64,000 nt of DNA from Hormiphora californensis. Its lineage: Eukaryota > Animalia > Ctenophora. Numbering within the stretch: the stretch's first letter is position 1; each line of letters begins with the position of its first letter. The notes under the pieces are model-generated. The model saw only the letters and a program-made list of their open reading frames with translations. It was not told where the DNA came from and did no database searches. A program made the position numbers and the translations under genes. Below, one piece after another: positions 2,581 to 63,960 of this stretch. Location of the stretch: contig CM035361.1 in the NCBI GenBank assembly GCA_020137815.1, positions 620,001 to 684,000 on the forward strand. The letters are read 5' to 3'.

Positions 2581-3860
2581 ACTAGACCAAAAAACAAAGG
2601 AAATTTGTTTAGAACACCCGTGGCCTTTTGTCGATACTTGACATGACGCTGCGGGAAATGCACCCAAACATCTGAGCTACTTATAGGTATCGTTGTGCCA
2701 TCTCTCTCCAAGTTTTAACACACGCACACTGTCTCTCACTCTTCCTCGCGTCTTGCTGTGACGAAAGGTGCATTTCCCGCAGCGTCATGTCAAGTATCGA
2801 CAAAAGGCCACGGGTGTTCTAAACAAATTTCCTTTGTTTTTTGGTCTAGTTTCTCAGGATTTTTGTAAACAGGTATCATAAATATGCAAATAACGGCTAA
2901 ACGGTGCGAGATACGACTTTTTGTCCCGGGGACGACCCCCCATAAATCGACTATTCTGCGTCGGAATATGTTGATGAAAACTTTCTAGGACCAGCTGAAG
3001 TGGAAATATTCAGAATACCTATGCATCAAATCATTAATTGGCGCATAAATATGCAAATAACGGCTAAATGGTGCGAGATACGACTTTTTGTCCGGGGGAC
3101 GACCCCCCATAAATCGACTATTCTGCGTCGGAATATGTCCATAAAAACTTTCTAGGACCAGCTGAAGTGGAAATATTCAGAATATGCATCAAATCATTAA
3201 TTGGTGCATAAATATGCAAATAACGGCTAAACGGTGCGAGATATGACTTTTTGTCCGGGGGACGACCCCCCATAAATCGACTATTCTGCGTCGGAATATG
3301 TCCATGAAAACTTTCTAGGACCAGCTGAAGTGGAAATATTCAGAATATGCATTAAATCATGAATTGGCGCATAAATATGCAAATAACGGCTAAACGGTGC
3401 GAGATATGATTTTTTGTCCCGGGGACGACCCCCCATAAATCGAATATTCTGCGTCGGAATATGTCCATGAAAACTTTCTAGGACCAGCTGAAGTGGAAAT
3501 ATTCAGAATATGCATTAAATCATGAATTGGCGCATAAATATGCAAATAACGGCTAAACGGTGCGAGATACGACTTTTTGTCCCGGGGACGACCCCCCATA
3601 AATCGACTATTCTGCATCGGAATATGTCCATGAAAACTTTCTAGGACCAGCTGAAGTGGAAATATTCATAAAATTTTACATAAATTATGCATAATTTATG
3701 ACTTCCCATACTCAAATCAAGATTTTATGTAGCCTATTACACGTAGAATAGTCGATTTATGGGGGGTCTTCCCCGGGACAAAAAGCTCTAAATCCAGCCG
3801 TTTTCGCTCTAAGTGTTTTGCAAAAAAGTGGTGCGTATGTATGTATGTATGTATGTATAC
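2581..3860. mobile_element. Non-autonomous element with an 84-bp inverted repeat, ~5 x 163-bp internal tandem repeats and a (GTAT)n tract; Helentron/DINE-like architecture
   Basis: IR at 2581-2664 vs 2767-2850. Repeat unit AAATATGCAAATAACGGCTA... at ~2880, 3047, 3210, 3373 and 3536. Inverted partial unit at ~3745-3785. (GTAT)n at 3835-3858. Confidence 0.55.
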
Positions 3861-7400: not shown

Positions 7401-10400
7401 GACGAACTTTAGTACACAGTTACAGAACTGAGTGGTATCTGTGTGAATGTAAGAACAACTAGTACAACAACAACTAGTACAACATCAATTGTTCCTGGTT
7501 CAATTCTTAATCAAATACAGAATTTTTCGCTTTTCTTCCCTATTTAATTCTTGCTCAGATTACTTTCATTAGTCATTAGTCGTGTACACTATTATAGTGT
7601 GTATAATACAAACATATATAATGCGTTGTTGTGCAGTACCAGCTATAATGCAGTAAAATCTGGCAAAAGTTTTTGCATTATTTACATGGTTTGTTTACAG
7701 AATTGTTATACTGTGCACGGTTTTTCCATCACGCTACCTATTTGCACCCCCATGGCCACTGCTATAACCCCCACCTTGTTATGGCGTGTGTTTTTGTTGT
7801 CAAACTTTGAACAGATTTTAATATACCATCTTTACTTTATATGATTGATGAACCATTCCAAATGTTATATCTGATGGATTCTATAGTACTATCGTTCATT
7901 CGTGAAATCCCTTTTCCTGTATGTTCTAGTTACCATGTCCAGTTGCCCCAAGTTACCTTTAGTTGCCCTATTTTCTGCTAGTTACCAAACGTTACCCTAG
8001 TTACGACTTGTTACCCCTAGTTACCATGTCGAGCGGTGCGGTATGGATCCTTGGGTGCCACAGGCATCTCTACACAACACTTGTTAGCGCTGTACAGTGT
8101 ATTCACTATCGGAAACACTCAAAGGGTACAGTTCTACACGTCTTTTACCAAACTCTGGCTGTTGCAACCTCCTCGATATTTTCCGTCAAAATTGTTTGGT
8201 GATGAAATCCCCTATTATGTTATAATCCCCTATTATGTTATAGTACTCAGCCTGCTCCGCAGGCTTCGTTCAGCCGCGCCTCGCGCGGCTAGTGTAGGGG
8301 TGACTGCGTCACCAACAAAATTGTGTCGGTTTCAACTCTCAGTTCAACCCCCCCCTCCCAGCTCCACTCTTACATTTCTCGTGTGATGTGACGAGTGTGT
8401 GGTGGTGCCAGGTGCACACAGACACACAGATGTGTGGTTTAATTCCCTGATGTGTGTGGTCTGCAGCACTATGGCACGTGTCCAATTATTTATCTCTCCA
8501 CTGCTGCTTTAATATCCAATAATTATACACACATTATTTCAGCTCTTCAGCTTCTCGAGGCAGTCTTACACAGCACACGAAATACACAGGTGAAAACACA
8601 ATCTGAATTATGGGTTCAGAATAATAGCTATGCGTCATTAAATGTTGAGAATCCTTGGTCACGCACCATTGCCTTAAATTCTACAGGTCAAGTCACTATG
8701 TCTCTACTTAATGGGTAGTTGTTATCTGGACAGTAGGGGAGATAGAAACCAGGCAGCAGAGTGTCTGGAGATGGCTGAGAGATTACTGACACAGACCACA
8801 AAATCTACCGCAGTAACCCGGCACATGGACAAACTAGGAACGGGTTAGTGTGATGATGTCATGAGTTAGTATGACGCAATGAGTTTTTATGACGTCACAT
8901 GGTTTGTCGTGACGTCACATGGTTTGTCGTGACGTCACATGGTTTGTCGTGACGTCACATGGTTTGTCGTGACGTCACATGGTTTGTCGTGACGTCACAT
9001 GGTTTGTCGTGACGTCACATGGTTTGTCGTGACGTCACATGGTTTGTCGTTACGTCACATGGTTTGTCGTGACGTCACTTCATAGTAACTCAATTAAAAT
9101 CTTAAATTACTTGTTTTAATACATCTGTCAGTTACTTGCACCGTAGGTTGAAAATAATCAGCATTTTAATATTTTTAACCCCCACAGATGCGTTGCTAAG
9201 CGTAGTCAGGGAGACTCAGATTCAACTATCTCTCCTCATGGAGCAGGACAGTGTGACAGACTGCAGCACCCTTGGGACAGGGGATGATTTCATGGACTGG
9301 GACCTGGAGGAGGATGAGGGAGCGGGGAGGAGCACTGATATTACTCTTACACATGTCGAGGATATTTTCCATCAAGGTGAGGGATCTTATTTTAAATATT
9401 CTCTCTTGTGGTTCTCTCCTCACTAGTCACTAGAAAGAACAATTAATATGACGTTATGATTTCTGGAAAAAGTAAGCCTATTTCTTTACTCACACATTTT
9501 AGTAAGTGCACTAGATGCAATTTGTTATTTCCGTAAAAAGCCTCAACATTGATTTCGATATCAGTTTAGCAGAATGATCACCTCTAAATTCCGCTACTCG
9601 CTAGGAACCATTTGCGATTGCATGCTAATCACCTCCGGCATCTCACCTCCAAGCAAACCTACCTCCAACTCCACCTCCCTTCCTTCTTTGTTTTAGTTCG
9701 ACTCCCCGGAGGGTCTCCACTTAAAGAACACTTTAAAATACTGCTGGTCTCCGGTCCGGAGAGTCTCCAGTCCAGCAGTGTTATAACCGTTCCTCCTTTC
9801 AGGGGAAGAGTACATGGTGGCCGGTCTCGAGGGGGACGCAGCAACCCTCTATCTGGAACAACTGGGAAAACTAAAGGAGTGTGCGGTCCACCTTACTAAA
9901 TATGATATTCTCAATTACCTTCTTTTGATCGCAGAGTAAGATTTATTTTGGTAATATTATTATTGATTTTATAATGGTATCAATAAGATTAAGTCATAAA
10001 TTGTACACCAGACTTTGCTGAGCAGAGTTGTTTTTCTAGGTGCTACAAGCGAACCTCAGAACCAGACGTCAGTATTAGATTTTTGGAGCGAGCCTTGGAC
10101 ATGCTAGATGCACCCATGACACAGTATAACTTTGCTTTTCTGCTAACAAACAGGTTGGGGAAGTGTGGTATGATAGATCCGTCCTATTTCCACACGTATG
10201 ATGCAAGCAGCTACTGCTCCACCAATATTCCTCTCCTTATGTTTTGACCAGGAACCGACCGAATCAGGAAATACTGGTCCCTGATTGGCTGATAACCAGT
10301 CACGTGACCTAAATAACGAGTTCTGATTGGTTGTTTACTTGTTTTGGTCGGTTCCTGGTTTTGACCTCCCAGTTCCCACGCCCCGGACGTGTCCTCTCAC

Positions 10401-19950: not shown

Positions 19951-20772
19951 ATCGCGCCCAAATTTGAAATTTCACTTGGCAAACGTTGCTGGCCCCCGTT
20001 GCAGCGCGGGATAAGGCAGCGCTTTTCAAAAATTTCACTTTCTGAGTTTGCGGATTTAATTTTTTTCCGCGGAAAAATGTTTTTTTTTAATTTCGCCGCG
20101 CGCAATCGACGATGCGCAGCGCAACTGGCAACGCACATCAGAAAACTTCGCTGCGTCCAAGCATCCCTCTTCAAATAGAAAAAAACGGCTGATTTATACA
20201 GTTTAAATTTCACCTGAAGCCTGTTTCAGTATGGGACAATAATTGACGACAAGCAGCTCTCAGATCTGATTGATCAAATTGTGAACTAAATTAAATATTC
20301 TTAAATATATCACAGATTTAAAAAACGACTTCTCTGCAGTATCTCCTGTTGGAATGGAAGTGTACAAAATCGGGCGTGAATTTATATCTCCTAAATTAAT
20401 ACAGCTACTACATACATACACACACACACAAATAAACCGGTGGTAATTCAGTCCTCGTGTTGTCAGTAGGATAAAAAAAGTGCACAAATTATCTCTGGTG
20501 AGTGTCTCTGCTTCATTGGCAATGTGAAATACCCGCAATTACAGTGGAATCACAATCAGCTGTGTCCGGTATCAAATGGCTCTTTTTGGACCTCTGAAAA
20601 CACTGAAAATAGGGAATTGAAATTAGAGTGACTGGGATTGGGAAGGAAATAGGGAATGTACTAAAGTGATACGCACTATTTATCTCGATGACTCATCACA
20701 GATTTGCTACAGAATTAGAAAAAAGTAGCAAAAAGTGAAAGGGGGAGAACTGAATATTAAATCAATATTAAA

Positions 20773-22836
20773 TTAATACTCACAATCTTTCCCATTGGCT
20801 AGGTTGATAACTGATTTGAAGTAGTACGCTGGTAGAATGCCTTTGTCATTTCCTTGACACAGTATTACGCCGTTTGGCGACCGGTAAAAACAGTATCCAT
20901 CTAGGGGAGGGTTAAATTTAAGCCAACCACAGCGCAGATTTCGATGTTTTTTTCTTCCCACGCTACCGTGGGAAAAACCGTGATGGCTTAAATGGTGTAA
21001 ACGCTGTGTAAATACTGTAATTTTTTAGGGATCCCTATTGGCAGTGAAATTAATGCCCCTGAAATGCCCCTGACAGTGAACTGAATGTTTCAATTCCATG
21101 GGAAGCAAATTGGACAGATTTAAGATTGGACAAGACCGCCACTACAGATTCCAACGCGCGCTGATCTCAACCTTGGTGTCTCCGCGCGTCACAGTAAGTC
21201 ATGTCCCAAAGTGTGACCGAGAGAGGGCCACACACATGGCGCGATGACTTCACACGCTAAGTTGAATTTCAAAAACAAACACTCGGCAAAGAATAGATTT
21301 CTTACCTGACAGGGCACTTTGCAAGTCGATGTAAATAGCAATTTGACAGTTGGACCTCATTCCACTAATGACCTGCCGATCCTTTGGTAGACCCCTTGCA
21401 AAGTGAATGTGAGTCCGCCTCATACGAGATAAGCCCTGGGAGAGGAGAGTTGTTATAATAGGAAACCCTGGTGGGAGAGGAGAGATGATTTAGAAAATGA
21501 ACATTCCTGTGTGACATTTCGAACGAATCAAGATAAAACCAAACGTATGATTTATGAAATAGAGCCATGAAAGCCCCCCCAATACGATGGTGCTGGCTCG
21601 AAATGAAGACCAGACTCTAACCTGATCTCTAATGGACTGCCACGCTTCCTGGTAAGTACCATGGACAATGCAAGGTTCCTCAGAGGCATCCAAAATGGGC
21701 TTCAAGTCCAGAGATTTTACCTATAACAAGGGGTAGTGTAGGGATAGTGTAGGGGTGACTGCGTAGTGTTATAGGGGTGACTGCGTAGGGGGAGATTAGA
21801 ATTCTTTTGCATGGATCTCAACTGGAAAAAGGGGTTTCATGGGAAATTCACTTTATAAGGGAACCTTATTAATTAATGCGCTTAGAGCACAGTAGCCGGA
21901 GACGAGCTAACCCTCAAACCCACTGTAAATTAATTAGATTAATTAACGAATATTTTACCTCAACAGAATGACCTTGATTTGCCTTCACCACTGTCCTCCC
22001 ATTTCTCTCATCAACAGCAAATCTCTGTTTATCATTTCCCTCAATCAACTGCAGCATCTCACTTTCTGTCACACTTAGCTGGGTGAACGCAGCGAGGGAG
22101 AGAACTTCGTCAAGGTAGAAATATCCACCTGTAAGGATAATTGTAATGTAAGGATATTGCAAAATGTATGCAGTATGGGAAATATTGGAGGATGTTTGTC
22201 TTGCTAGTTGCTGAACCCTATGACATCTTGCTAGTCTCTCCCGCGACCCTTTATCTTAGCATGCCAGTAAAACGGGATTAAATCCGACTTTATTAATATT
22301 TTACCTGACAGCATTTCTAGTCGATCTGCACCGAGGTTGCGATGTCGACACACAGCACTCAGCATCTTGGATATTTTCACCGGCCGCTGAAAGAGGGTAT
22401 AAATTAGTTAATTAGTTGTTGATGGTGTTTGGAAGGCAAATCAGGGCCAATATAAAACGGAATTTTCTAGAAAGAGAGCAAAAGGAGTGTTGAACAGCTA
22501 AGAGAGCAAAAGAGAGAGTGTTACACTAACTAAGAGAGAGTGTTACACTAACAAAAGAGAGAGTGTTACACTAACTAAGGGGAGAGAACTGACCGATGAA
22601 GGTGACCCCCCTGTACTTCTCCTTCCTGTACTGCCACTTCTGGAACCACCACTCTACATGGGGAGAAGAACATTATTGTTAGTGATAGGTGAATGGTTGT
22701 GTTCGCAGCGTACCATGCAGCATTATAAAGTCGAAAGTCAGTTAGTTGGTCCTGGTGGCGGTGCTGATCAAAGAATACTCTGTTGTTAGTATTGTGCAGT
22801 GGTAAAGCAGTCAAGCTTGTGAAGAGAGGAGGGAGA

Positions 22837-22905
<69 letters not shown>

Positions 22906-22984
22906 GAGAGCTAGAGAGAGATAGAGCAGAAGGATGCTAGAGCTATATATCGCGATAGACTAGTTCTCGCATCTCTCTCTCTCT

Positions 22985-23068
<84 letters not shown>

Positions 23069-23698
23069 TCCCTCCCTCCTCCCCTTCCCCTCCCCGCCCT
23101 GAATCTTTCTTCATCTTCGGGCTGATTCTGAGATGCACAGCCCTCACGCCACCGGCCGGTCCCCAAGCTAGCACAGCCAGATAAAATAGAGATGGGCAGG
23201 GAAAGATTAGACCCATCTTCGTCACACGTGTGAAGATGGTGGGCACATTAAAACATCATGCCAACCTAAGCCTTTAGCCTAAACGGCTACAGCTAGTATA
23301 GCAGATCTGCACATCACATACATCACATGTTAGATATTCACACACAATCACACAATCACACCCACACCTAAATAATAGTATGATTTCAAGTCCCATGCAA
23401 AGAACAAGATTGATGGTATTATGTTACCTCTCCCACTAAGAAAGGAGAGACACGAAAACGACACGATTGCACTTTTAGCATAAAAAAGATGCAAGATGCT
23501 ATTTCTACGCAAAATCCCCACTAAGATGCACTAAACTACAAAAACTGCTACAATTGCTGCTACAAGTTACACAATACTGCTACATTTTCTGCTACATTTT
23601 CTGCTACACACAATAGCAGGTTACACCATGCCACACAATGCTTGTTCACTCACTCTCCTATTACGGCCACCACCACGGCCCCTACTAGGTCCTGACAT
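20773..23698 (-). CDS. TRPT1: tRNA 2'-phosphotransferase (Tpt1/KptA); exons 23698-23654, 22653-22594, 22386-22305, 22128-21959, 21720-21622, 21435-21306, 20900-20773
   Basis: Translation contains the Tpt1 motifs ISKMLSAVCRH, NDKQRF, KANQGHS, VHGTY, GLSRMRRTHIHF, ISGMR and FYRSPNGVILCQG. All junctions are GT-AG and in phase. Confidence 0.93.
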
Positions 23699-23863
23699 GA
23701 CGCTACAACTGTTTGAGTTGGATTAGTTTAATTGAAACTGAGTAACAGTTGGGATTTGGGAGTGAAAACATCTTGAAAGTTGAAACATCTCTGTTTGTCT
23801 GCATGTTGGTTTGTCTGCATGTTTGTTTTTCATTTTTTCGGTTTGTCTGTCTGAACTACGTAC

Positions 23864-26800
23864 CACATCAACCAGCTCCGTAAAGGTTGGAATAACAAAT
23901 CCATCCGTTACACCTTCTGATTTAGGTCTCAGTGGCCGAGACGATCTGTTTGGATTGGCAATAGCACCCGTTCTCAAACGTTTCTTCATCATGGAGGGGT
24001 GTCGCCCAGAAACAGAGGAACTTGGAAGTTTTCCAATTTTTGGAGATGGTGAGGTTTCAGATCGAGTTGTTGGCGGGGTTTGGTATCCAGATGGCGGGGT
24101 CTGGTAGCCTGTTGGAGGAGTCTGGTAACCAGCCTGTAGGTTAGGTTCTATTACAACATGCGTGTTCCAATTGTAACCACCGTCAATTCTCGTTTCCGAG
24201 CTATTATTATTGCTATCAGACTTCCTCCAATTTTGATCAGTATCAGCAGTTCTTGTTTTGTTTTCATCTTGCCAACTTCGCTCATCATTCCTCGTTTCCG
24301 AATTATTAACATGATCATTCTGCCAATTATCACGGCCACTCTGCTGACTCAAATTATCCCCTCCACTACGGGGTGTCCCACAATTTGATGGTGTGTTGTA
24401 TCCCGCCTCCCACCTTGAGTCACATAGTTGGGGCCGAGGGGATGGGGAAGAACCGCGGCTGCGGGGTGAGTCGAATCGGCCTTGAGGAGAGTCGAATCGG
24501 CCTTGAGGGGAGTCGAATCGGCCTTGAGGTGGGCCACTGCGGGGTGTGGGAGAGTTGACTCGGCCAGGATATTGACCGCTGCGGGGAGAGTAATTATGTC
24601 TCTGCGACCCGGGACAGTACCCCCTATTATTGTATCTGTGGAGACTATCTGGAGAATCAAATCTGCTATCACGCCGAGGAGGTGGTGCTGGGGACCTACC
24701 AACCTCAAAACTATCGTCAGCACTTGCAATCCTCGACAGTTCCTCATCATATGTCCCCCGACCTCTTGAGATCAGGTAGGGTGGAGGGGGTGGTTCTAAT
24801 CCAGGAGGGGCACGGCCTCCACGACCTCTGGGATGCGGTTGAGATGGTCTCTCATGCCCCCGGCCTCGAGACTGAGTGGGAGGGTGAACGGGGCCTATAA
24901 ACTGCTGTGGAGGTGGGGGTCGCATATCCGGTGGAGGCGGACGTTGTTGCGGAGCTAGGGATCGGTGATCCGGTGGTGGAGGTCGATGGTCGGGAGGAGG
25001 CGGTCGCTGCGGGAAGGTGGGACTACAAAACTGATGCCGTGGAGCCGGGGGAAATGTTCCGCTATTGAACTGTTCGATCTGTTGTACAACATCGAATCCT
25101 TGGTTGTAAAATTGTGAATCCCTTTCTCCTTGACCATTGTAATGTTCCTGCTCGTGGTGATGTTCCTGCCGATGTTCCTGCCGATGATCTTGCCGATGAT
25201 CTTGCTCGTGGTACTGCCGGTGATCCTGCCCGTGGTGATGTTCCTGCCCCATCCCGTTTGACTGGTAGCCAGTACTCCCTGCTCCACCTGTAAATTGATT
25301 GCCACCACCTGCTCCTTCATAAACCACAGTAGGGGAATTGAATTGATTGCCGGACCAGGGTGGGTGGGGTGGTGGTTGGAGGCCCGGTGGGGGTCCTGAT
25401 GGCAGTTGGATGTCTGCCAGTGATACAGCTGGGGGTGGAAAGTTGTCTGGGTGGAAGTTATGAGGTTGGTTCTGGAAATGAACATTTTCAGTCCGTCCAG
25501 AAAGATATGGATTTTGGTACGATCCAATGTTTGGTGTGGGCCGGACACTATCCGGTGTGGAAACCCGTGAGGAGCCACGGGGAATGAACTCTTTGCTGAA
25601 CACATTGATCCCTGATTCGGGTGTAGCTGTCCGTGGTGGTGGTTGATGGGGAGACTGGCTTCGGGGTACAAACTCTGCTACATCGGCATTCAACCGACTA
25701 GTAGTGATTCTTTCCCCCTCGTTCCGACTAGAGGTGATTCTTTCCTCTTCGTACCCCTCATCACTCTTAGATCTCTTGCAGGCTGGTGATGAGGTAGATG
25801 ACGTTTGGGAAACGTTGGCTGCGGAGACACCATCAGTGCTAGCCGGGGAGAGAGATACACCATCATTTTCTCCAGCGGATATTTTATCATATGACCTGTT
25901 TTTAGGGTGCTCCAAATTATCCAAAAAATTTCAAATTTCTCCAACTTTTTTTAGGTGTGAGGTTTAGTGAGAAAAGCAATTTCCCAATTTTTTTTTGAAA
26001 TCGGAAGTCATTTAGGCTAATCACACGCTACTTATGTAATTAGCCAGGCGCGCGGGAAGTACAACTTCCATTTTGACGTATTTCAACCTTTGGACGATGT
26101 TATGAGTTCCAAACTAGCTTGATGACTCTTCTGAATGACTTGTTTCTACCTTAGATGTACCCTAGTGACCGAAGATGCCATAACAGGACATGCCAAATAT
26201 GCCATAGCAGGGAACGCGTGGCTTGCCAGCGCATATTGGATAAGACTTCATTTTATGCCTTTCTGGGGTCTTTCCATGTGACCTTTGTTGTTGATTTTGT
26301 TGTTATAGAGGCCCATAGATGTCAAAAGAGGAGCATAGGTGGCCATAGAGACCCTTAGAGGCCCATGAAGGCCTCTGCAGGCCCATAGAGGCCCATATAC
26401 GTACATAGCAGTGTACAGAGGTTCATAGAGTCCCCTGGAAGGGCCATACAGACCCATAGAGTTCTATAGCGGCGTTCAGAGATTCAGAGAGGACTCTTAG
26501 ATGGCCATACATAGCCACTGAGGTCCATAGCGATCCATAAAAGGCCCATAGAGGTCCATGGAGGCCTATAGAGGTCCATAGAGGCTATAAAGGACCTGAA
26601 TGGGCCTCTATGGAGTCTCTATGGATCTAGATGGGCATCTTTGGCCCTCAATCGGTCTCTATGGTACTCTAGGGTGCCTAAACGGGACTGTATAAGTCTA
26701 TAGTAATCTGTACTGGCCGCAATAAGTCTTCATGACCCTATAAAGGCCTCTTTGAACCTCTTGGAGCCGCAATGGACCTCTATAGGCTTCTGTGGACCCC

Positions 26801-27919
26801 CATGAACATCTAAGAAGTCTCCAGAGAGGTCTCTTAGAGCTCTAAGAGTCCTCTCTGGATCTCTGAACGCTGCTATAGAACTCTATGGGTCTTTATGGCC
26901 CTTCAAGGGGACTCTATGAACCTCTGTAGACTGCTATGTACGTATATGGGCCTCTATGGGCCTGCAGAGGCCTTCATGGGCCTCTAAGGGTCTCTATGGC
27001 CACTTATGCACCTCTTTTGACATCTATGGGCCTCTATAACAACAAAATCAACAACAAAGGTCACATGGAAAGACCCCAGAAAGGCATAAAATGAAGTCTT
27101 ATCCAATATGCGCTGGCAAGCCACGCATTCCCTGCTATGGCATATTTGGCATGTCCTGTTATGGCATCTTCGGTCACTAGGGTGCATCTAAGGTAGAAAC
27201 AAGTCATTCAGAAGAGTCATCAAGCTAGTTTGGAACTCATAACATCGTCCAAAGGTTGAAATACGTCAAAATGGAAGTTGTACTTCCCGCGCGCCTGGCT
27301 AATTACATAAGTAGCGTGTGACTTACTTGACTTATGGCGGCCGGAGAGGTCGAGTAGCAATGAACGATCTCCAGTTATCCCGGTTGCACATAAGTTCAAG
27401 CATTTCGTTACTGTTATCACACACCCCGTCCAGGTCTTGTAATAGGACATCTGGGAAGGTTAGTAACGGGCGGCCACGCCGCGCCTGTCCATGAGCTGGT
27501 TTCCACATAAGTAGTTCATGTCCCACTAGGTCATCGTGTCTAGCAAGGTGCCCAGCCATTCTCAGTCTCTGGTTTCTAATCTTCTCAGTTACACGAGGGA
27601 TATCTTGGAAAACCACGGCATTTGACACTCTGTCCGCACACCAGCGTGTGATTAGCCTAAATGACTTCCGATTTCAAAAAAAATTTGGGAAATTGCTTTT
27701 CTCACTAAACCTCACACCTAAAAAAAAGTTAGAGTTGCTACTTCAAAAATTTTTTAAAAATGGATAATTTGGAGCACCCTACCTGTTTTGATCCTCTTTC
27801 TGGGAAGATTTAGTTTCTTTCCATGATTTCTGAGAGTTTTTGGTTATATTTTTGCTCGCCGCTGATAAGGCTTTCCGGTGAAGCTGTTCGATATTCAGAG
27901 TCTTTCTTTCGGCCATCAT
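23864..27919 (-). CDS. Pro/Arg/Gly/His-rich low-complexity protein with two PAM2-like motifs; exons 27919-27783 and 25895-~23864; 3' connection uncertain
   Basis: The ~2-kb open exon contains RLNADVAEFVPR, GINVFSKEFIPR, RGRG boxes and PQGRFDS repeats. It joins the upstream exon in frame (…EDQN-R-SYDK…) across the transposon intron. Candidate donor GTG|gtacgt at 23864. Confidence 0.75.
25903..27781. mobile_element. Foldback hAT-type non-autonomous transposon (TIR TAGGGTGCTCCAAATTATCC, ~600-bp arms) with 8-bp TSD CCTGTTTT; coincides with a predicted intron at 25896-27782 (minus strand)
   Basis: TSD at 25895-25902 and 27782-27789. Arms 25903-~26500 vs ~26845-27321 plus 27652-27781. Degenerate GGCCCATAGAGG-type repeats in the centre. 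Confidence 0.92.
27322..27642 (-). mobile_element. 5'-truncated RTE-like LINE 3' end inserted in the foldback arm, TSD AGCGTGTGA
   Basis: Translation RNQRLRMAGHLARH...LLMWKPAHGQARRGRP...NRDNWR is typical of RTE ORF C-termini. TAAGTCAAGTAAG tail; 9-bp TSD at 27313-27321 and 27643-27651. Confidence 0.85.
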
Positions 27920-28157
27920 GGGTGTTTGGGTTGCTAAGGAGAGAAAGATTAGGTGGTTTAACACAGGATGTAAAGCAACATAAAAATTCGTTGCTGCATA
28001 AAAATCGTTCTAAACCTCACAAATGTTGTTGATTTTCTATTATTGTTGGTAAAACTTTTCCGAACACGTTTGTAACTTCCAAACTCCAAACATGCATGTC
28101 CACTATTGACTACATAATAGTACATGTACATGTAGTACATATATGTATGTATATATA

Positions 28158-28322
28158 CAGTCGGACCCCGATTTACCGGGCTCCGATTTACCGGGCGGAT
28201 AATCTTCCCCCAAAATAGAAAATTAACAATATTTGACCCCGATATACCGGGCACCCCGATTTACCGGGCAAACCCCCCCCCCCCCCCCCCCCCGAGCATC
28301 CCGGTAAATCGGGGTCCGACTG
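28158..28322. mobile_element. Tc1/mariner-type MITE copy
   Basis: TA-CAGTCGGACCCCGATTTACCGGG...CCCGGTAAATCGGGGTCCGACTG-TA. Confidence 0.88.
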
Positions 28323-28728
28323 TATATACATAGGGGTGATTCAAAAAGGACGTCCGTGATTTTTGGTTATTTTTGTCAAAAATGGGATACCTCCCCCCTC
28401 CCCTACCCCTGGACGTCCTTTTTGAATCGCCCCATATAACATTCGAACCCGATTTTAGGTTGAGTGATTGAATCACTCAACCCGATATATCGGGTATCAT
28501 TGTTGTTCAAAATTTTATATTTGTGGGGTTTAGAATGCCCAATGAGGAAAATGACATAGAAACTAAGTCAAAAAATTTTTTTTGCTAAAAAGAAAATGAT
28601 AATCAAAACATGTTCACGAAATATAAAACAGCTTGTTTTTCATGGTCTCACCAGTCACTCGACTTCTGAAATGTGATATATCAATCATCATTCATCAGGT
28701 GACCAAAATGTTTCAATATTATAAAAAC

Positions 28729-30141
28729 TCAATTTTTTGAAAACTTTACAACACTTCTATTACTGAAAGCAAATCGTTCACTTATATATGGGCAACTTGT
28801 CAAATCCAACTTTTCCAAGTTTTCTAAGTTGTCAATTAAGTACATACTCTCTTCTTCGGTGATGCTGCATCCTTTCAGGGAAATGTAAGTGAGAGAAGTA
28901 ATCTCTGCTATAGGCTTGAACTTTGAAGTCAATGCAGCATCCGCCCTTAAATGATGGTCATCGTCTAAGAAATATCTATCTGCGACCAGCGTCAATAAGT
29001 TTTCTAGCTGTACCAGGCATCCGAAGTCAGGCTTATTATTACGTCCATAATAACTTAAGTCATAAGCATTGCGTGAATTGCAAGAAATATCAAGATAATT
29101 AATATTTTTGCTGAAACTTGTAAGAAGCCCGAGAGAAGTTATTTTTGAAAGTGGGTACATACTAAAAAAATTAGTTATACTCCATTGCAGCGTAACACGC
29201 TCAAGGTTTGGTGCAGACTGAAAAAAATACTTCAAATCATCCCAACAAATTCCATTGTCATTTCCATCTTCATAACTATTAGTCTCAGTACACTTGAATT
29301 CTTTCAAAGAAGCAAGGCAGATGTCATCTTGTCTCTCCATGTAAATATACTTAACTTCCAGGTACTCAAGAGTGTTTTGGAACTTTAAAATAATGTCATT
29401 CATTGGAGGAGCATAATCCAAAAGTTCATGATCCCAGGGATCCCATCTCGTAAGAGAAAGCTTTTTTAGTTCATCAATAGAAATAATTAGGTCTGGCTCA
29501 ATATCAAGAGCCTTGCAGATTAAAACGTTAAGATTAGGAACATTTGATATAGTTTTTTCCAAGAGTGTTGTATTAGAGAAGCATGAGCTATTGATAATGG
29601 ACACTTCTTCCAAGGAATAAATCGGAGCACGAAAAAGTTCTAACATACTTGTTATGTCATCACTGACGAACCAAAACTCAAGTGATTTCAGTGTACCACT
29701 TGGGAAAATTTCGTTTAAAATTAAATCACAATACATCTGATGACAATCCATATAGGCGAAAACAAGCTTTCGAACTCCGTTTTGAGCCTTCTTAACTAGA
29801 AACTGAGCTGCTTTAAAATTAAAAGAAATCGAAAATGGTCGACTTAGATCTAGTATGCTCTGCAGTTCACGTTCCCGTTCACATCGGAATTTTTCACCGA
29901 GGACACACGAATGGAAGACTAATGTCTTGGTTCTGGAAGAAAGAATATTGTTAGAAACACCCCTCCATCGATGGGATACCGCACCGCACTGAGCAAAATC
30001 CTGAATACGATCCAGGTATCCCATAACATCTGATAATATCTCGATTGGAAGGGACTCAATGGTTGTTTCACTGTTAAAAGATTCGGAATGGGGTTCCTCC
30101 AGGTTTTCACAAGGCGGCAGATCCTCAGTTTTACAGGCCAT
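28729..30141 (-). CDS. Intronless F-box/leucine-rich-repeat protein (~470 aa)
   Basis: F-box IESLPIEILSDVMGYLD...CGAVSHRWRGV and C-terminal LRRs (LTYISLKGCSITEE, LEKLDLTSCPYIS). ATG at 30141 is directly preceded by a pyrimidine-rich CAG. Confidence 0.85.
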   Translation of the reverse strand: MACKTEDLPPCENLEEPHSESFNSETTIESLPIEILSDVMGYLDRIQDFAQCGAVSHRWRGVSNNILSSRTKTLVFHSCVLGEKFRCERERELQSILDLSRPFSISFNFKAAQFLVKKAQNGVRKLVFAYMDCHQMYCDLILNEIFPSGTLKSLEFWFVSDDITSMLELFRAPIYSLEEVSIINSSCFSNTTLLEKTISNVPNLNVLICKALDIEPDLIISIDELKKLSLTRWDPWDHELLDYAPPMNDIILKFQNTLEYLEVKYIYMERQDDICLASLKEFKCTETNSYEDGNDNGICWDDLKYFFQSAPNLERVTLQWSITNFFSMYPLSKITSLGLLTSFSKNINYLDISCNSRNAYDLSYYGRNNKPDFGCLVQLENLLTLVADRYFLDDDHHLRADAALTSKFKPIAEITSLTYISLKGCSITEEESMYLIDNLENLEKLDLTSCPYISERFAFSNRSVVKFSKN

Positions 30142-30342
30142 CCTGAGAAGAGAAAGATTGTGTGATCGATGTAAATGTAAATTATGCACTTATCCCACTC
30201 AATAGTGAATATATACCCAGAAAAATGGTGCCAACGTACTCTCTAAAGTATCACTTTCTCGAGTTAACTTATGACCAGAGTGCTGGAGAGTGGGCCGTGG
30301 GGCTGTCCAGCGCGGTGAGGCGTGACCGACCTGAGCCCTGAA

Positions 30343-31700
30343 TATCATCATCATCATCATCAATTAACATTTAATATACCGCTTTATAGCATATTGGTAA
30401 GATATCACTTAAAAAAGAAAAAACTTAACGGATACCTTCCTGCTTTCAAAAGCGGTTTTACTCTATTTGATCAATAAATTAGAGTCCATGAGCTAGTAGT
30501 GTTTATACAAATGTTCAAGTGTCCCTTGGTGCTTCTAACACCCTCTTTCCACGGATTATGAAGTGGGTTCCAGGGGACTGCTTTACCTTCTCCTTCAGTT
30601 CAACAACAAGCTTTTTCCGTTCATTCCGTTCTTCTACTGTTCTATCAGGAGATATAAAGACTTTGCCAAACTTGTCGTTCCCTTTCAGCAGGGATTTCTT
30701 CGACAGGATTGAAATTTGAGCTTCTCTGCTCCTCAGCACAACTTTCACAGGTCTTGCCGATGAGGACTGCTTTCCCAAGCGCTCGGCAGATTGCACTTTC
30801 GGAGCCTCTTCAAGCTCACCAAAAAGAGACTTAATTTGAGTTTCAAGCTTCTCACCATTTACATTGTCTTTCAACTCTTCCAATCCATGGATGATGATGT
30901 TACACCCACGGTCCTCCGATGCTGCCACGATTGCCGATTGAATCTTCTTTGGAGCCAGGGCCGAGGCACACTCCTTCTCCAAAACGGCTGCAAAGCTCTT
31001 CATTTCCTGTTGTGCTGTTGACTGCACAGCTGTTATCTCAACCTCCCTCTTCTCAAGTAATTGCCTCTGGATTTTCAGGAGCTCCTCTTGTGCAGCCACT
31101 AGATTTCTTTGGGTTTTTATGAGCTCTGTACTGTGTATTTTGAGCTCTTTCTCCAGCTGGTTTATCCTCAAGGTTTCGCAACCCACTGCTAACAACTCTT
31201 CAGTAACTGGGAAGGTCTGTTCCATAAGAATACGGCATGCATCCTCCACAAGGTCTAAAAGCACTGGCTTGGTCAGTGCATTGAGTTTGGTCCTGGAGGG
31301 GACCTTCAGATCATTCCAAACTTCCGCTGTCTGTGGTCCGTACTGCTGCACTCTGTTCGGGTTTATTTCACCGAACCCACCGGTTAGGGTTAATACCTCG
31401 CTTACCCACTCCACGGTTTGTTCTTGACAGTATCGGACGTGTTCTTCTTCCACATCTGTTTCCCGCAGGTAGGTCCGTGTATCAAGTTCATCATCAGAGC
31501 TTTCCATCTTCTTGCTGCCCTCTTGGGCTCTTACATAGACATTTGCTGAAACTCAAATTAATTTGTTTAAAGTAGTGTTGAAAAGTTTGAAACTTTCCGT
31601 GTTTGCTCTTGGCAAACGTTGGTGGCCTCCGATAGCGCGGGATAAGGCAGCTCTTTTCAATGTTTGCTGTTGGCCTATGCTACAGGCTTAGAAGCCGTGG
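30343..31700 (-). mobile_element. LINE ORF1-like gene (ORF 31507-30515) followed by a short 3' UTR and (TGA)n tail, with no ORF2
   Basis: Coiled coil plus the motifs NIIIHGLEE, RLGK....RPVKVVL and VFISPDRTVEER, typical of CR1/L2-type ORF1p. (ATC)n at 30345-30362. 5' boundary uncertain. Confidence 0.7.
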
Positions 31701-32169
31701 AAAACGCGCGCACTTGGGGTCTGCAGCGCATGCCAATGTTTGCTGGATCCTCGAGATTTTGTTTGCTCGGAATTTGGAACAAAAAAAATCAAATTCAACA
31801 AAACAAAACAAATAAAATAAAATAAATAATGAAAATTGAATCGCGCGCGTGTTAAACGCGCAAATTATAAACGCGCAATAAGAATCACAATTTCACGCTC
31901 GCTTGGAACAATGCAATTTTCCAAATAAACAACAAATGCCTAAATACAAATACAATGCAACTCTGGCCTCATGGAATCCTTAGAATGATATGTATTTCCA
32001 CTGTCTGGAGCCACGACCCCATCTGAGAGTCAAATCGGGGTCTGGCGCCGCCAGACAGTATTTCTACGAGCCAGAGACCAGAGTTTAACTAAAAACTCTC
32101 GTAGCCAGATCCTTGAGTAAGGTTGGTACAATGTACATGAATGATATGCATGATACAGATTGTTGTAGG

Positions 32170-35100: not shown

Positions 35101-38100
35101 TTAATTAATTAAACACATATGTCCACCAATCCGGCTTTCTCTCATAGAACTTATTGAGTAATCCCATTAATGGGGTGCCATTCAGTTAGAGTTACTCATT
35201 AATCAACAACATAGAACAGAATATAGCAAATACATTTGCTATATTCTGTTCTATGTTGTTGATTAATTAATTTAAATGATAGCATATGAAAGGTCCCTGA
35301 TAACAACAGGAATGAACCGGGACGGGATATTCCATTTACAGCTAGTCCTAGTCCAATATATAACCTCTCTTGCAGATATTTGAACAAGTCGATGGACCTA
35401 TTCAAAAGACTCCTAACTGAGTTCCCTGACATGACCTTGGCAAGGATCTACGAGGGTAAAGCCCGGAATCAGATGATAACCATGGTGATTCCTGATGGGG
35501 ACAGTGACGAACAAACTGACAGGATTTTTACTCAGGTGAGGGCCGGGTCTTCACTATAATAATACTGAATGCTGATATCACTTAGTGATCACGCCAAAAT
35601 GATCATATCAAGTGAAATCAAAAGCAACTTGGCACCTGGCAGCGATCCCCTATAATAGATGTACTCTCCAACCTAATTGTTGTCTATCACTCCTTGGCAG
35701 CATTATACTCATCACAATTTTATCTTACTAATCAGGTGATGGAGACGGATTGTGCCCCAGAGATTCTGTGTATGATTGGAGAGGAGTATATGAGGATGGG
35801 AGTACTGGAGGGAGAACCATGCGCCATGTCCATATTTAGGTATACACCGTCGAATACACCGTGCTGTATTGGGGCAATGTCCATATTTGGGCATACTTTA
35901 TATATAATGGGGGCCATGTCCATATTTAGGTGTACACCGTCGAATACACCGTGCTGTATTGGGGCTATGTCCATATTTGGGCATACTTTATATATAATGG
36001 GGGCCATGTCCATATTTAGGTGTACACCGTCGAATAATGTGTGCTGTATGGGGGCTATATGCCATATTTGGGCATAATTTATACACCGGGGGCCATGTCG
36101 ATATACAGTCGGACCCCGATATCAGGCACAACCCTTTCCTCCCGAGAATCCCGATAAATCGAGGTCCGACTGTATAGGCATTATATGCTCACCATGATCA
36201 TGAATCTAATCTAGATATCCTTATCAGTCGAGCGCTGGAGAAACGTAAGAATTCCCGAGTGTATCATTTACTGGGGATGGCAATGAGGGCGACTTACTTC
36301 AGACACAATCCAGATATGCTGGATATCTATAAACAAGGTACAGTCGGACCCCGATTTAGGGACACCCTCGGGGGAAAGGCTCTTGTCCACTAAATCGGGG
36401 TGTCCACTAAATCGGGGTCCGACTGTATAGTAAAATATTGATCGAATTCGAAGTTATAGTTCTGATTAGTAATCTGTCCCAATTAACCCTTGCTCCGCCT
36501 GCTCACATTTCGTGATCTGCTTTGAACTAGCAGAGGGTCTCATGAGACTGCAGTGAGTAAAGACAATAATTGGTTAATCTAATACAGTCGGACCCCGATT
36601 TACCGGGATGCTCGGGGGAAAGGGTTTTGCCCGGTAAATCGGGGTGCCCGGTATATCGGGGTCAAATACTGTTAATTACCAATTTCGGGAGAAGATTATG
36701 CTCCCGGTAAATCGGGGTCCGACTGTACTACCGCTCAACTCTTCTTGATCTTATAACAGGAACCTTCATGAAGCAAAAGACATCCCTCAACCTGATGGCG
36801 GTGGCATCAGCTCAAGACCCATCAAAGAATAAGATCAAAGCGCAGAAAAAGAAATCATCCAAAGATATGGATCCTCTTGTTGAGGTAAAGTAATTGTATT
36901 TTAGGAACCGACCGAAACAAGTAAACAACCAATCAGAACTCGTTATTTAGGTCACGTGACTGGTTATCAGCCAATCAGGGACCAGTATTTCCTGATTCGG
37001 TCGGTTCCTGTTGTATTTGTTTCACGTTTGTTTGTTAGTGCTGCGTCTAGAGGATGACCTGCCGGAAGGTAACAGCGGCCGCTTTTATTTGATGATGATT
37101 TGTCAACATCCTTTGTCCTACTAATTGTTTCCTAATTTTAGCCTAGCTGATGATCAGGAACCGACCGAATCAGGAAATACTGGTCCCTGATTGGCTGATA
37201 ACCAGTCACGTGACCTAAATAACGAGTTCTGATTGGTTGTTTACTTGTTTCGGTCGGTTCCTGCTGATGATATATTTGAAATTGTTGTCACACACAACTC
37301 CCCACTGTCAAATATGCTCTGCCAGACTCCCCATATCTTACAGGCGGATACACCGGCAGAAGTGGTGGCAGTACCGGTGGCACCTACTATTCAACTGAAT
37401 ACAGTCATCGAAACATTCTCAACTGCAGGTAACCATGGTAACCATGCATTTCAGATAACCATGGTAACCATTATGCAGGCCATGTGGCCACGTCGATAAC
37501 GTTTTTTCCAATAAATAGCTGTCTAGACGATTACATAATTGACCACCTACAAACTAGGATTAGTTAGGAACAGGATTACCTATGATTATTGGATAATTTA
37601 TTGTAGGATATTTTACCGCACTCTCAAAACAATTTCAGTTAAATTAAGTAGAGGGGCAAACAGAGAAGCAGTTTTTGACTTGGCAGAGATTCTGTGGTTA
37701 GCAGGGGAGAAAACACGAGCAGTCACAAACTTTGAACTAGCAACTCAGTCGGAAAATGTGATAATTCAAGTGAAGGCTCATTTGAGGCTCGCTCATGCTT
37801 TCTTGGATAACAATGATCTGGACCAGGTAATTAATTAATTAATTAACAGGTTAATTAATTAGAAATTTAATAACTGATCATAAATCTTACACTGCAGTCC
37901 CCAGAAACACATTTTTCTTTCTTTTCTCCATGCGTCTTCCCGACCGTTTAATCAATGCATATGTATTACTGCCTAGTATAGCTAGACTCTGTTTCGTGCG
38001 CCCCGAAATCCTTCTTTACAAATGTAAAGGAGGGTTAGAACATAACAATGCATTTATTCGTTTTTCAGGCTGAGTATCACCTGGGGATTGTGATACGACT

Positions 38101-59614: not shown

Positions 59615-61248
59615 GGGGGAGTGAGAAAGAGGGGGAGTGAGAGAGAGAGAGAGAGAAAGGCATGCTAGGTATTGTAGCTGAGTTGGAAAGGGATCGCTTT
59701 TAGGTTTTCTAACGCTTGACAAGAAAGCCTTGCCGATTTTAAATTGAATAATATTATGTGTATATGAAGGCCGGGGAGACCATTTTTTTAAAACTCTCCA
59801 TTTTGCTGAAAACAGGATTCAATGCTAGTCGTGCTATTCTCTCACAAAAGACTGCCCTCTCCGGTCCGAAGCTTTCGAGACATTACAGTTATGTTGATGT
59901 AGTATGACAAATTACTTGATAATCGTCACAGCTTGTCTACTGTCTATTTCTCTTTTGATATCACCAATTTGAAAGTGAACCACCTTTTTTGAACTCAGTT
60001 TCTTATAAAATTGCAATGGCTGACGATTATCCCTCCACTGATCCCCTGTATTGTTTGATTTACTAAATCTCTTATTTACATTCTTCTTCTACCGGGGCTC
60101 CCTGTAGCTTCCCCCCCCCCCCCCTCAGGCTAAAGTAATACGCTAACTGCAGAACTCAGACATGTAGCGATTTACTGACTTTGCTGCTTTGGTTCATCAA
60201 ATCAAATCATTTTGAATTTATGTTGACACGGGTACAATATAATAAAGTTTAAACTTACAAACAAACAAATACCCTACAATACAGTTGAATTTGTTGATTC
60301 ATTTGGTGTCCAATTAGCCTCTCTCCAGGCTCCACCCTCCAATGAATTTGAGCTCCACCCTAAAATGTAGACACTTTGCACACTCAAATTCCTATCATGC
60401 CATTATATAGGTTCTGCAGCAGCCGACATGATATGCCTTGAATTATAGTTCCATTTAATATTATTATCCGTTACACGTTCTCATTTTGTGGGTCCCCGTG
60501 AGCCTCTTTCCTTCATCTCTCTCCTTTATATATTTCTCACATTCTCTCCTTCCTCTCTCCTTCCTCTCTCTCTCTTTCCTTCCTCTCTACCGAGTCTCCT
60601 AACCTCTCGAAAGTTCCAATGGATTCTTATAAAAATTATTTGCTGTCCCACGTGAATTATTACCACCTCCCCCTTGATCTCGTTTTTTGTATCTTCTCCA
60701 ATTTCCCTAGAGCTCTCAGATCTATTATAGATCTTTTATTATTCGTTGTTATCATAGGAACATATCTTGCTGCAATTTTATTGAATTGAAAGAAATATGT
60801 TGCCATAAAATATCCAATATATTCCAGATTTAATTTTCTGCTCAACATAATGTTCACTTTATAATATTATTACCCTACAATGTTCTGAATATTCGTATTC
60901 TTTAGAGGACTAGAACGTGCTGAAACATGGTGTAGAGCAAGATCCGACGAAAGGAGCAAGAGAGTTTATACCTCTCTCATAAAGAAGTCAGAAATAGTAG
61001 GAGCAGGGAAGCTGCAAAGAATCAGTTCCAGCCTTGTAGAACTAGAAAATAAAGGATGGGGATTCCTGTGATTGCAGTGTGGCTGAGTTTAGTTATTCAT
61101 CGTGCTAGCTCGATACAGTGGAACTATAATTTTAATCCGGGTAAGATGGGTTTGATTTTCATATGGCCCAATTCCTCCATTTTGACACAGACTCCCCATT
61201 TTTACAGACGTCAACTTTCAAGGTATGAAATACCAACATCTAACCACC

Positions 61249-63960
61249 CCAATTCCTTCACTCAGGTGGAAAGGTAGCCTGTCCTCCTGGTAGGTGGCTG
61301 TGCCCCAACCCTAACCCCAATTCCTTCACTCAGGTGGAAAGGTAGCCTGCCCGCCTGGTAGGTGGCTGTGCCCCAACCCTAACCCCAATTCCTTCACTCA
61401 GGTGGAAAGGTAGCCTGTCCTCCTGGTAGGTGGCTGTGCCCCAACCCTAACCCCAATTCCCTCACTCAGGTGGAAAGGTAGCCTGTCCTCCTGGTAGGTG
61501 GCTGTGCCCCAACCCTAACCCCACTTCCTTCACTCAGGTGGAAAGGTAGCCTGCCCTCCTGGTAGGTGGCTGTGCCCCAACCCTAACCCCAATTCCTTCA
61601 CTCAGGTGGAAAGGTAGCCTGTCCTCCTGGTAGGTGGCTGTGCCCCAACCCTAACCCCAATTCCTTCACTCAGGTGGAAAGGTAGCCTGTCCTCCTGGTA
61701 GGTGGCTGTGCCCCAACCCTAACGCCAATTCCTTCACTCAGGTGGAAAGGTAGCCTGCCCGCCTGGTAGGTGGCTGTGCCCCAACCCTAACCCCAATTCC
61801 TTCACTCAGGTGGAAAGGTAGCCTGCCCGCCTGGTAGGTGGCTGTGCCCCAACCCTAACCCCAATTCCTTCACTCAGGTGGAAAGGTAGCCTGCCCGCCT
61901 GGTAGGTGGCTGTGCCCCAACCCTAACCCCAATTCCTTCACTCAGGTGGAAAGGTAGCCTGCCCGCCTGGTAGGTGGCTGTGCCCCAACCCTAACCCCAA
62001 TTCCTCGGTTAGGACTCCCGTGGAAGGTGGCTGTGCCCCACCTGACCCAATCCCTACCCCAGTATACCTTACTCCAGGTGGAAAGGAGCCTGCCCCCCCT
62101 AGGGATGTGCCCCACCCTGAACCGGCCAATTCCCTACTCAGGTAGGAAAGGTACCTACCCATCCGTGTGGCTGTGCCCCCAACCCTACCCACGTAGTTCC
62201 TCCCGGTGAAAGGTAGCCTTCCCACCGTGGAGGGGCTGCCCCAACCCTACCCAAGTTGCCTCCTCCTGGAAAGGTAGCCTGCCCCTCCTGGTGCCCCGTC
62301 CCACCCTACCCCAGTGGCTGTCCCGCCTGGAAGGGTGCCCACCCAACCCAGTTCCTTCCTCAGGTGGAAAGCAGTGCCCCACCGTGGAACAGCCTGTCCC
62401 CTGGAAGGTAGCCTGCCCCGAAGTCGCTTACCCCAAACCCTACCCAATCCTCGCCAGGTGGAAAGCCAACCCACCCCATTCGTCTGGTCCCAACCTAACC
62501 CCATCCTCCTGGAAGGTAGGCCCCAACCCCCCCATCGTGCTTGCCCAGGAACGTAACCCCCATCCTGTAGGTGGAAGGGCCCACCCACCCATCCCCACCT
62601 ACGCCAAGCCTCCCGCTGGAGGTGGCTGTGCCCCAGTGACGTGCCCCAACCAGGGGCAGTACCTCCCCTCCGGCAGGTGGAGTGCCCCAACCTAACCCAA
62701 TCCTCAGCCGTGGAAAGCTAGCCCCCTCCGTAGTGGCTGGCCCCAACCTAACCCCATTCCCTGTCAGGTGGAGAGCCTCCCCCTGGAAGGTGGCTGTGCC
62801 CCAAACTAACCATCCTCCTGCAGGTGGAAGGTGCCTCCCCTAGGTGGGGCCCCAACCCTAACCCCAATCCTTCTCCGTGGAAAGGGTGCCTCCCCCGTAG
62901 GCTTCCCCAACCTAACCCCAAGTTACCTCCCTGGAGGAGGCTGCCCAACCGAGGCCATTCTTCACCAAGCGAAAGGAGCCTTGCTCCTCGGTGGAGGTGG
63001 ACCGCCCGCCTGAGCCATTCCCTAACCAGTGGAAGGATAGCCTGCCCTGGTAGGTGGGTGCCCCAACCCAATCCGTCTGGTGGCAAAGGTAGCCATCCCT
63101 GCGTGGAGGTCCCACCTCCCAATTCCTACTGGTGGAAGGCCCGTCCTCGGCTAGGTGCTCCGCCAACGTACCCCCTTCCCAGCAGGTGGAAGGTAGCCAC
63201 CCCCATCCTCCTCGGGGTGCAACCCTACCCAATTCCTACTTCCGGTGGAGGTGCCCACCCTAACCAATTCCGTCCCACGAAGACCTCCTCACTAGGTGGT
63301 AGGTGCCCCCCCTAACGCCATTCCTCACCAGTGAAACGCTTCCTCCTCGGGGAAAGGAGTCCCCAACCCTGCACCGCTTGTCCCAACGGAACCCCAATCC
63401 GCTCCCAGGTGGAAGCTAGCCCCAACCCACCGCAATGCCTGCCCGGTGAAGGTCCTCCAACCCTAGGTGCTGCCACTCTGGCAGGTAGCCTTGCCCCAGG
63501 TAAGGGCTGCCCCAACGAAGCTGCCCAACCACCAATCCTGCACCCAGGGTAAGAGCCGCCTCCGTCCGTGTGTGCCAACTAACCCATACCCCAGGTGAGT
63601 GCCCCGCCCAACTAGAGTCGCCGTCGCAAGGTAGCCATCCTCATGGTGGAACGTACCCATTCCTCCTGAGACTTCCCACCCAGGCAGTCCTGCACCTGAC
63701 ATCCTGCCAGGTGGCTGTGCCCCACCCACCCCAATCCTTACTCAGGGGGAAAGGTAGCCTCCTCCGGTAGTGGTGGCTGGCCCCAACCTACCAACTTCAG
63801 GAAAGGTAGCCTGCCGCCGGTTTGGTGGTGCCCAAGCCAACCCCAATCGATCACTGGTGGAAAGTACTGCCCGTATCCTGGAGGTGGTGTCCCCACCTAC
63901 CCAATTCCTTCATTAGGTTAAAGGACTGTCCCGGTGGTGTGGCTGTGCCCAACCTTAATC
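61249..63960. repeat. 68-bp satellite (AATTCCTTCACTCAGGTGGAAAGGTAGCCTG...CCCCAACCCTAACCCC): ~11 near-perfect copies, then strongly degenerate copies
   Basis: Period of 68 from 61251 to ~62000; noisy but recognisable units to ~63960. Confidence 0.92.

Follow-up and report, generated by a model that had tools for sequence, protein, structure and literature searches.

A hATm-type transposon at a would-be intron site in a predicted Tpt1-like gene of the ctenophore Hormiphora californensis

Intron gain from the maize element Ds is said to have been described by Giroux in 1994. Insertion at an AGGT proto-splice site is the standard model of intron gain by insertion (PMC3443670), and Ds, a hAT element with a TAGGG end and an 8-bp target-site duplication (TSD; PMC3260210), has given rise to an intron de novo (PMC12187468); Ds1 is also described as alternatively spliced from exons in titles cited by PMC3260210. 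Among the matches listed in PMC12130899, hAT introners include Styela clava family 1 (6 copies of ~1.6-2.2 kb with an 8-bp TSD, classed as 'co-opt both'), Panicum virgatum family 14 and Salvia splendens family 1, and introners that take both splice sites from their target have been described elsewhere (PMC9860276, for Florenciella; PMC11282704). The hATm elements have TAGGGTG and CACCCTA ends, an 8- or 9-bp TSD and, in two members, terminal inverted repeats (TIRs) of 417 and 575 bp (PMC6004678). The locus described here lies in a 64,000-nt stretch of Hormiphora californensis (assembly GCA_020137815.1, contig CM035361.1, positions 620,001 to 684,000 of the forward strand), referred to as the window, in whose coordinates all positions are given. 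On the minus strand of the window, a putative non-autonomous hATm element interrupts the predicted first coding exon of a Tpt1/TRPT1-like gene, with splice dinucleotides so placed that exact removal would restore the reading frame; the analysis favours, with moderate confidence, a leaky and disruptive insertion over a clean new intron.

The 8-mer AAAACAGG occurs twice on the minus strand, at 27789-27782 and 25902-25895 (8/8 positions identical), and the 1879 bp between the copies (27781-25903) begin with TAGGGTGCTCC and end with GGAGCACCCTA, each of which has one occurrence in the window. This is a cut-and-paste-type insertion with an 8-bp duplication at a CAG/GT site (the slash marking the border). 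A 9-bp TSD was considered and rejected because the ninth base that matches already belongs to the symmetric terminus, as its first base. A candidate donor GT (27782-27781) arises from the final G of the upstream TSD copy together with the initial T of the element, and the CAG of the second copy supplies a candidate AG (25897-25896). A cut from 27782 to 25896 takes out 1887 nt, which is the element plus 8 nt, keeps the reading frame and has a CAG/G context at both borders of the proposed intron. The frame upstream of the TSD, with an ATG at 27919, is stop-free for 75 codons, and that downstream of the element is stop-free for 722 codons and in phase with it; without splicing, a TAG stop follows immediately at the start of the element. 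An earlier note on this DNA, made from its letters, had set out this geometry (the TSD copies, the 1879-bp element, the GT and AG positions and the exact removal), the exonic insertion between open frames and the immediate stop, all of which were confirmed. The joining of the flanks in phase, to which it also pointed, is true and was rejected as a sign of splicing: in-phase flanks are automatic for any insertion into a coding exon, so that what calls for explanation is the GT/AG register alone. Given these element ends, exact register at any offset would be obtained at 5.1% of the insertion sites possible in the downstream exon (2025 8-mers; 1.9% through TSDs ending in AGG and 0.7% through YAGG), which is uncommon, yet not rare across a scan of many windows.

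To judge from its ends, TSD length and long arms, the element is a non-autonomous hATm; it has the termini TAGGGTG and CACCCTA with an 8-bp TSD (8 or 9 bp being expected), which bears out the previous assignment to hAT and narrows it. Like the hATm elements of PMC6004678 it has these ends, an 8-bp TSD and long arms (~600 bp here), and unlike them it lacks a transposase (no transposase-sized open reading frame (ORF) was found in the element, the longest frame having 113 codons) and carries a nested piece resembling a long interspersed nuclear element (LINE); splicing is not mentioned for hATm in the available part of that source. At the arm tips 20 nt are identical, the next 35-45 nt differ, and then 481 nt are 98% alike (9 mismatches). 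The description as a foldback element holds for the inverted arms and fails in that the structure is not a plain one, the left arm being broken by the 321-bp LINE-like insert and the tips diverging inside; the size of 1879 bp, called unusually large before, is real and is not new, since the Styela clava hAT introner family spans ~1.6-2.2 kb. No second copy of the element was found in the 64-kb window, and the 20-nt terminus had 0 matches in metagenome contigs. Both arms contain a run of T followed by AG about 50-65 nt inward from the tip (27718-27737 and 25945-25975), with CTAAC at the left arm's site only and CCAAC in the right arm.

Compared with the hAT introners of PMC12130899, the locus shares a non-autonomous hAT element, an 8-bp TSD supplying splice sites and a size near that of the Styela clava family, whereas the published introners are multi-copy at annotated introns and of the Charlie/Tag1 type; here there is one copy of hATm type, the intron is predicted only, and the donor is half TSD and half TIR. 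Because a hATm element starts T-A-G-G-G-T-G, a duplication ending in AGG would give a donor that is half host and half element. With maize Ds the locus has in common the pre-insertion site CAG/GT and a hAT element with a TAGGG end and 8-bp TSD; unlike in the AGGT model and in Ds, the donor T comes from the element and not from the duplication, and the Ds case has RNA evidence. Alternative splicing like that of Ds1 would be the outcome expected at this locus. As in the Florenciella introners (PMC9860276), the element brings neither splice site in full, but the evidence there is at the level of families and here concerns a single copy. The hallmarks of introners found here are an exonic insertion with TIR and TSD, and splice dinucleotides placed for frame-keeping removal; the locus is a would-be introner site, one that fails the acceptor test below, while the class is defined by RNA support and by multiple copies. 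Four ctenophore genus names had 0 occurrences in 12 of the 14 supplementary files of PMC12130899, the largest introner survey (files 13 and 14 excluded), and a literature search for ctenophore introners found nothing related.

Candidate splice sites were scored with a small model built on 11 acceptors and 9 donors, which were derived from the open frames of the host, calcineurin-B-like and F-box genes and not from RNA; the acceptor background was the 4349 AGs of the window, ranks refer to the 144 AGs between the donor and position 25780, and host scores are leave-one-out. The new donor at 27782 falls at the 94.6th percentile of window GTs, compared with 88-100 for host donors, so that it is as plausible as the earlier note had supposed. 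The proposed acceptor at 25896 falls at the 47.4th percentile of window AGs (rank 81/144), compared with 80.4-99.8 for host acceptors. Host acceptors have a pyrimidine at -6 in 11/11 cases and at -5 in 10/11, and in 0/11 is there another AG within -20 to -3; in the proposed site, positions -4 to -8 are all A and a further AG lies at -16, and under this small model the site does not fit the host splice code. Stronger AGs are present inside the left end of the element (27718) and in the downstream exon (25839; Table 1). A splice from 27782 to 27718 would remove a 65-nt intron and meet a stop after 4 codons, the AG at 27451 in the LINE-like piece (rank 2/144) leads to a stop after 11 codons, and the AGs at 25939 and 25910 are both frame-shifting. 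The donor in the tail of the LINE-like piece (27326) falls at the 98.6th percentile under the same small model. These scores do not support use of the CAG of the second TSD copy as acceptor, nor the generalization that seamless splicing would follow wherever a member of the family inserts at an AGG-ending site, since no pyrimidine tract is brought to the AG and a competing acceptor is carried in the end of the element.

In the minimum-energy fold of a 2007-nt stretch, the two ends of the element meet, pairing takes in intron bases +2 to +21 and almost the entire final 100 nt, and the donor, the internal acceptor 27718 and the whole possible branch region are hidden, with no unpaired branch site more than 7 nt from AG 25896. 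The exonic acceptor 25839 lies outside the foldback. The internal acceptor is transcribed 1.8 kb earlier than the right arm, and with the nascent 5' part folded alone its mean unpaired probability is 0.40-0.44. The idea that the arms would help splicing is thus not upheld by the fold; as modelled, arm pairing would favour the exact intron by hiding 27718 and hinder it by hiding the donor and branch sites, so that its net effect could go either way.

The interrupted gene, which is RNA 2'-phosphotransferase-like, was modelled as seven parts (~925 residues), all stop-free, in phase and bounded by canonical sites. Three of the five predicted domain exons match PF01885 (Tpt1/KptA) in order (profile positions 29-83, 88-117 and 119-159). 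The sequences RH, KQRF and MRRTHIHF are present in the predicted protein and are presumably the catalytic Arg-His, Arg, Arg set of Tpt1. A pyrimidine-rich acceptor at 27934 (99th percentile) lies 14 nt before the ATG at 27919. In the large exon, a PAM2 match (E 0.028, 14.6 bits) is under the cut-off of 20, and a second PAM2-like motif was seen by eye only; reading phase alone predicts a fusion (27919-20773, minus strand) of a 720-residue Pro/Arg/Ser-rich N-terminus containing these motifs with a Tpt1 domain.

The only homologues of the large exon are two gene models of Pleurobrachia bachei (P0001 and P0002), whose loci carry the identifiers sb|3462650| and sb|3465299|; their identity to the exon is 87% and 90%, and between themselves 90%. 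Near-length candidates gave 2 homologues among 7988, while 1104 longer and 254 shorter candidates gave 0; a set of 1.84 billion representative proteins gave two matches, P0002 and P0003, the latter rejected as a repeat-driven chance match, and 461 pattern matches in metagenome contigs yielded 0 confirmed. A single Atlas match, at 0.75, was left unused. Neither P. bachei model spans the insertion site (P0001 begins about there and P0002 far downstream), and both look incomplete because they extend into the next intron and are without the Tpt1 exons. The Met-Ile-Asn start of P0001 resembles an out-of-frame ATG at 25890 just after the TSD (Met-Ile-Lys, 25890-25882), and P0001 is without ~12 residues further on; right next to the insertion site, this model and the window disagree in frame or gene structure. 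Since the two models are only 90% alike, the gene appears to be multi-copy or highly polymorphic; a related ctenophore has ~3.2% heterozygosity and many indels (PMC8527503). A Tpt1 contig of sequencing run X1 matches two exons at 82-84% and has different sequence in front (another paralogue or species), so that a short parental copy may exist. Over positions 20000-32000 this run covered 6 of 30 bins, none of them on the junctions or the large exon, and provides no evidence on expression.

The moderately probable reading, and the one favoured here, is a leaky disruptive insertion in which the donor is spliced mostly to 27718, and not a clean intron; the insertion is more likely harmful than seamless. 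The hATm transposon, with its nested LINE-like fragment, lies 135 nt inside the predicted first coding exon, in one copy of what is likely a multi-copy ctenophore gene. The new donor at 27782 would be used, mostly paired with the strong acceptor at 27718; the message would then include sequence of the element and the LINE as far as the donor at 27326, and translation would stop after four codons. In a minority of transcripts the frame might be saved by splicing to 25839, at the cost of 19 codons, or exactly by splicing to 25896. The exact register would be a lucky draw, of about 1 in 20, and the insertion would be tolerated through other gene copies or an empty other allele. Disruption is favoured because the acceptor at 25896 is weak, because 27718 and 27451 rank first and second and lead to early stops, and because the LINE donor is strong; the pairing of the donor and branch region in the fold, the 5.1% chance of the register and the multi-copy or polymorphic state of the gene point the same way. 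If the insertion is young or heterozygous in a multi-copy gene, rescue is not needed.

Several observations weigh against this reading. The gene is fully intact, with 15 private amino-acid changes against 15 and 9 in the two models (327 columns), which is no excess. The probability that a dead gene would have stayed intact is p = 0.27 when substitutions only are counted and 0.05 to 0.01 with assumed indel rates, a calculation which assumes that the arm difference (1.9%, or ~0.9% per site) and the LINE insertion arose in place; the low values favour continued function. The arm differences and LINE piece may instead have arrived with the element, which would undercut the argument. The splice model is small, with its 11 acceptors and 9 donors taken from reading frames, and one host acceptor is likewise A-rich (6/13 pyrimidines). 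The internal acceptor 27718 is itself partly paired in the nascent fold. No host intron shorter than 86 nt was seen, which makes the splicing of a 65-nt intron here a presumption; the available part of PMC6142364 holds nothing on ctenophore intron size. Finally, published hAT introners co-opt both target sites (PMC12130899), so weak-looking TSD acceptors can work.

Exact intron gain, by which the spliceosome would mainly use 27782 with 25896, restore the message base for base and leave the gene functional, is the strongest of the rival explanations and still rather unlikely. The exact register with CAG/G on both sides, the donor at the 94.6th percentile, the fully intact gene and the precedent of maize Ds and hAT introner families all fit it; under the host model, however, its acceptor is no better than a random AG, the register would occur by chance at 5% of sites, and the internal acceptor is made 1.8 kb sooner. 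Arm pairing would conceal that internal acceptor, but the same pairing conceals the donor and leaves the branch region without an unpaired site more than 7 nt from the AG. If exact removal were true, the locus would represent a single, dated gain of an intron in an early-branching animal, with the fixed end of a hAT subfamily giving half a donor. Either way it offers a compact test of the choice of the ctenophore spliceosome among three acceptors, and of the effect, favourable or not, that long inverted arms have on splicing. Maize Ds and the published hAT introners have already made the mechanism known, so that the locus is a good example and no surprise to specialists.

An in-frame but imprecise removal, from 27782 to the exonic AG at 25839, is improbable. 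It would take out the element and 57 nt, costing 19 low-complexity residues of a protein that still works; in a variant, 25895-25839 would be an earlier weak 57-nt intron whose donor was duplicated by the element. This acceptor (rank 3/144) preserves the frame, has 11/13 pyrimidines and is not part of the foldback, and its use would explain the intact gene; P0001 is without most of the 25895-25839 stretch, although the start of that model may be a gene-prediction artefact. The site must still outcompete 27718 and 27451, and no YTRAY branch motif was noted for it.

If the protein did not include the upstream 46 codons, or if this copy were silent, the element would lie at the 5' end of the gene and the register would be irrelevant; this is a very doubtful alternative. 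The upstream part is absent from both P. bachei models, and the Met-Ile-Asn start of P0001 falls near the insertion point and resembles the ATG at 25890, but both models look incomplete. The upstream frame is, moreover, stop-free for 75 codons and in phase, and it has a 99th-percentile acceptor 14 nt before its ATG, the same layout as in the neighbouring calcineurin-B-like and F-box genes. There is very little to recommend the wider proposal that the hATm family is an active comb-jelly intron generator and the first ctenophore introner, yielding 1.5-1.9-kb foldback introns whose arms mask internal splice sites and which are possibly removed in two steps via the AG/GT at 27718. Two-step (recursive) removal at this locus, in which the 65-nt intron would go first and the regenerated donor would then join 25896 or 25839, has a GT directly after AG 27718 in its favour, and a stop-free frame would be kept only with a zero-length step, but it is scarcely credible, given that the regenerated donor is weak (72.8th percentile, even in its genomic context) and a weak far acceptor is still required.

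Table 1. Positions of the element, the proposed and competing splice features and the predicted host-gene exons in the window.
Feature	Position	Strand	Basis or remark
TSD, upstream copy AAAACAGG	27782..27789	-	last G is first base of proposed donor GT
TSD, downstream copy AAAACAGG	25895..25902	-	contains proposed acceptor CAG, ending 25896
Proposed exact intron, 1887 nt	25896..27782	-	predicted from geometry
Putative non-autonomous hATm-type element, 1879 bp (1549 bp minus nested LINE piece and one duplication copy)	25903..27781		no transposase-sized ORF
Left outer arm, 130 nt: left-specific stretch preceded by a perfect 20-nt terminal repeat	27652..27781	-	sequence comparison
5'-truncated LINE-like piece (27642-27322) and its duplication	27313..27651	-	open frame of 113 codons; acceptor 27451, consensus-like donor 27326
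Left inner arm, 481 nt	26841..27321		arm comparison
Central part, 339 nt, with many degenerate ~10-nt CCATAGAG-type subterminal repeats reaching into the arms	26502..26840		repeat family D20
Right inner arm, 481 nt, 9 mismatches to left	26021..26501		arm comparison
Right outer arm, 118 nt	25903..26020		sequence comparison
Competing acceptor inside left end: CTAAC, T run, AG 27719-27718, then GT	27718..27737	-	99.1st percentile, rank 1/144
Alternative exonic acceptor, in frame, 57 nt downstream, costing 19 codons	25839..25858	-	92.8th percentile, rank 3/144
First coding exon, upstream part (predicted): acceptor AG ends 27934, ATG 27919, 45 codons + 2 nt	27783..27933	-	no homologue covers it
Large exon, downstream part, 2032 nt, low-complexity Pro/Arg/Ser-rich; predicted donor 23863	23864..25895	-	one weak PAM2 match
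Predicted Tpt1-domain exon	22305..22386	-	in phase; no Pfam match alone; 22374-22325 matches X1 contig at 42/50 letters
Tpt1-domain exon	21959..22128	-	PF01885 E 7.5e-11
Tpt1-domain exon	21622..21720	-	PF01885 E 0.00048, alone below cut-off
Tpt1-domain exon	21306..21435	-	PF01885 E 1e-12; X1 contig 54/66 letters
Predicted last coding exon	20773..20900	-	in phase, canonical acceptor; no Pfam match alone

The LINE-like insert in the left arm is 321 bp long and has its own 9-bp duplication, TCACACGCT, at 27651-27643 and 27321-27313. The stretch 27642-27322 is taken to be a LINE of the RTE type from its peptide and the appearance of its tail; its frame gave no real match in Pfam, and a contig of run X1 matches 45 nt of it at 82%.

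In the neighbourhood of the host gene, a 44-nt stretch resembling a spliced leader (31595-31552, minus strand) stands directly before an intronless ORF of ~330 codons (31507-30518), whose 3' region has a (GAT)n run near 30360. There is one such leader copy in the window and hundreds of X1 contigs match it; the stretch also matches the Hormiphora leader printed in PMC8527503. On this leader and the P. bachei homologues together, the animal would very likely be placed among the pleurobrachiid ctenophores. Together, the leader and the intronless ORF (31595-30518) look like a retroposed trans-spliced message, to judge from their arrangement. A literature search for a Pleurobrachia spliced leader, an intron and a transposon together found nothing. 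The ORF peptide presumably resembles LINE ORF1, Pfam giving a weak coiled-coil match only. Between this ORF and the host gene lies an intronless F-box/leucine-rich repeat ORF of 485 codons (30189-28732, minus strand; Pfam F-box-like, E 2e-7). A gene at 18769-18051 (minus strand), which from its peptide is assumed to be calcineurin-B-like, has introns of 86, 144 and 137 nt that fed the splice model.

Two small inverted-repeat families are abundant in the window (D9 with 9 copies and D18 with 11; e.g., 28154-28320, 36337-36721, 10242-10362 and 37148-37268), and one repeat of this type lies just upstream of the first acceptor of the host gene. Tandem arrays at 61110-62157, 2877-3808 and 8839-9118 are built of 68-, 163- and 20-nt units, respectively; the one of 68 nt contains CCCTAA motifs, and the end of the window at that array is GC-rich.

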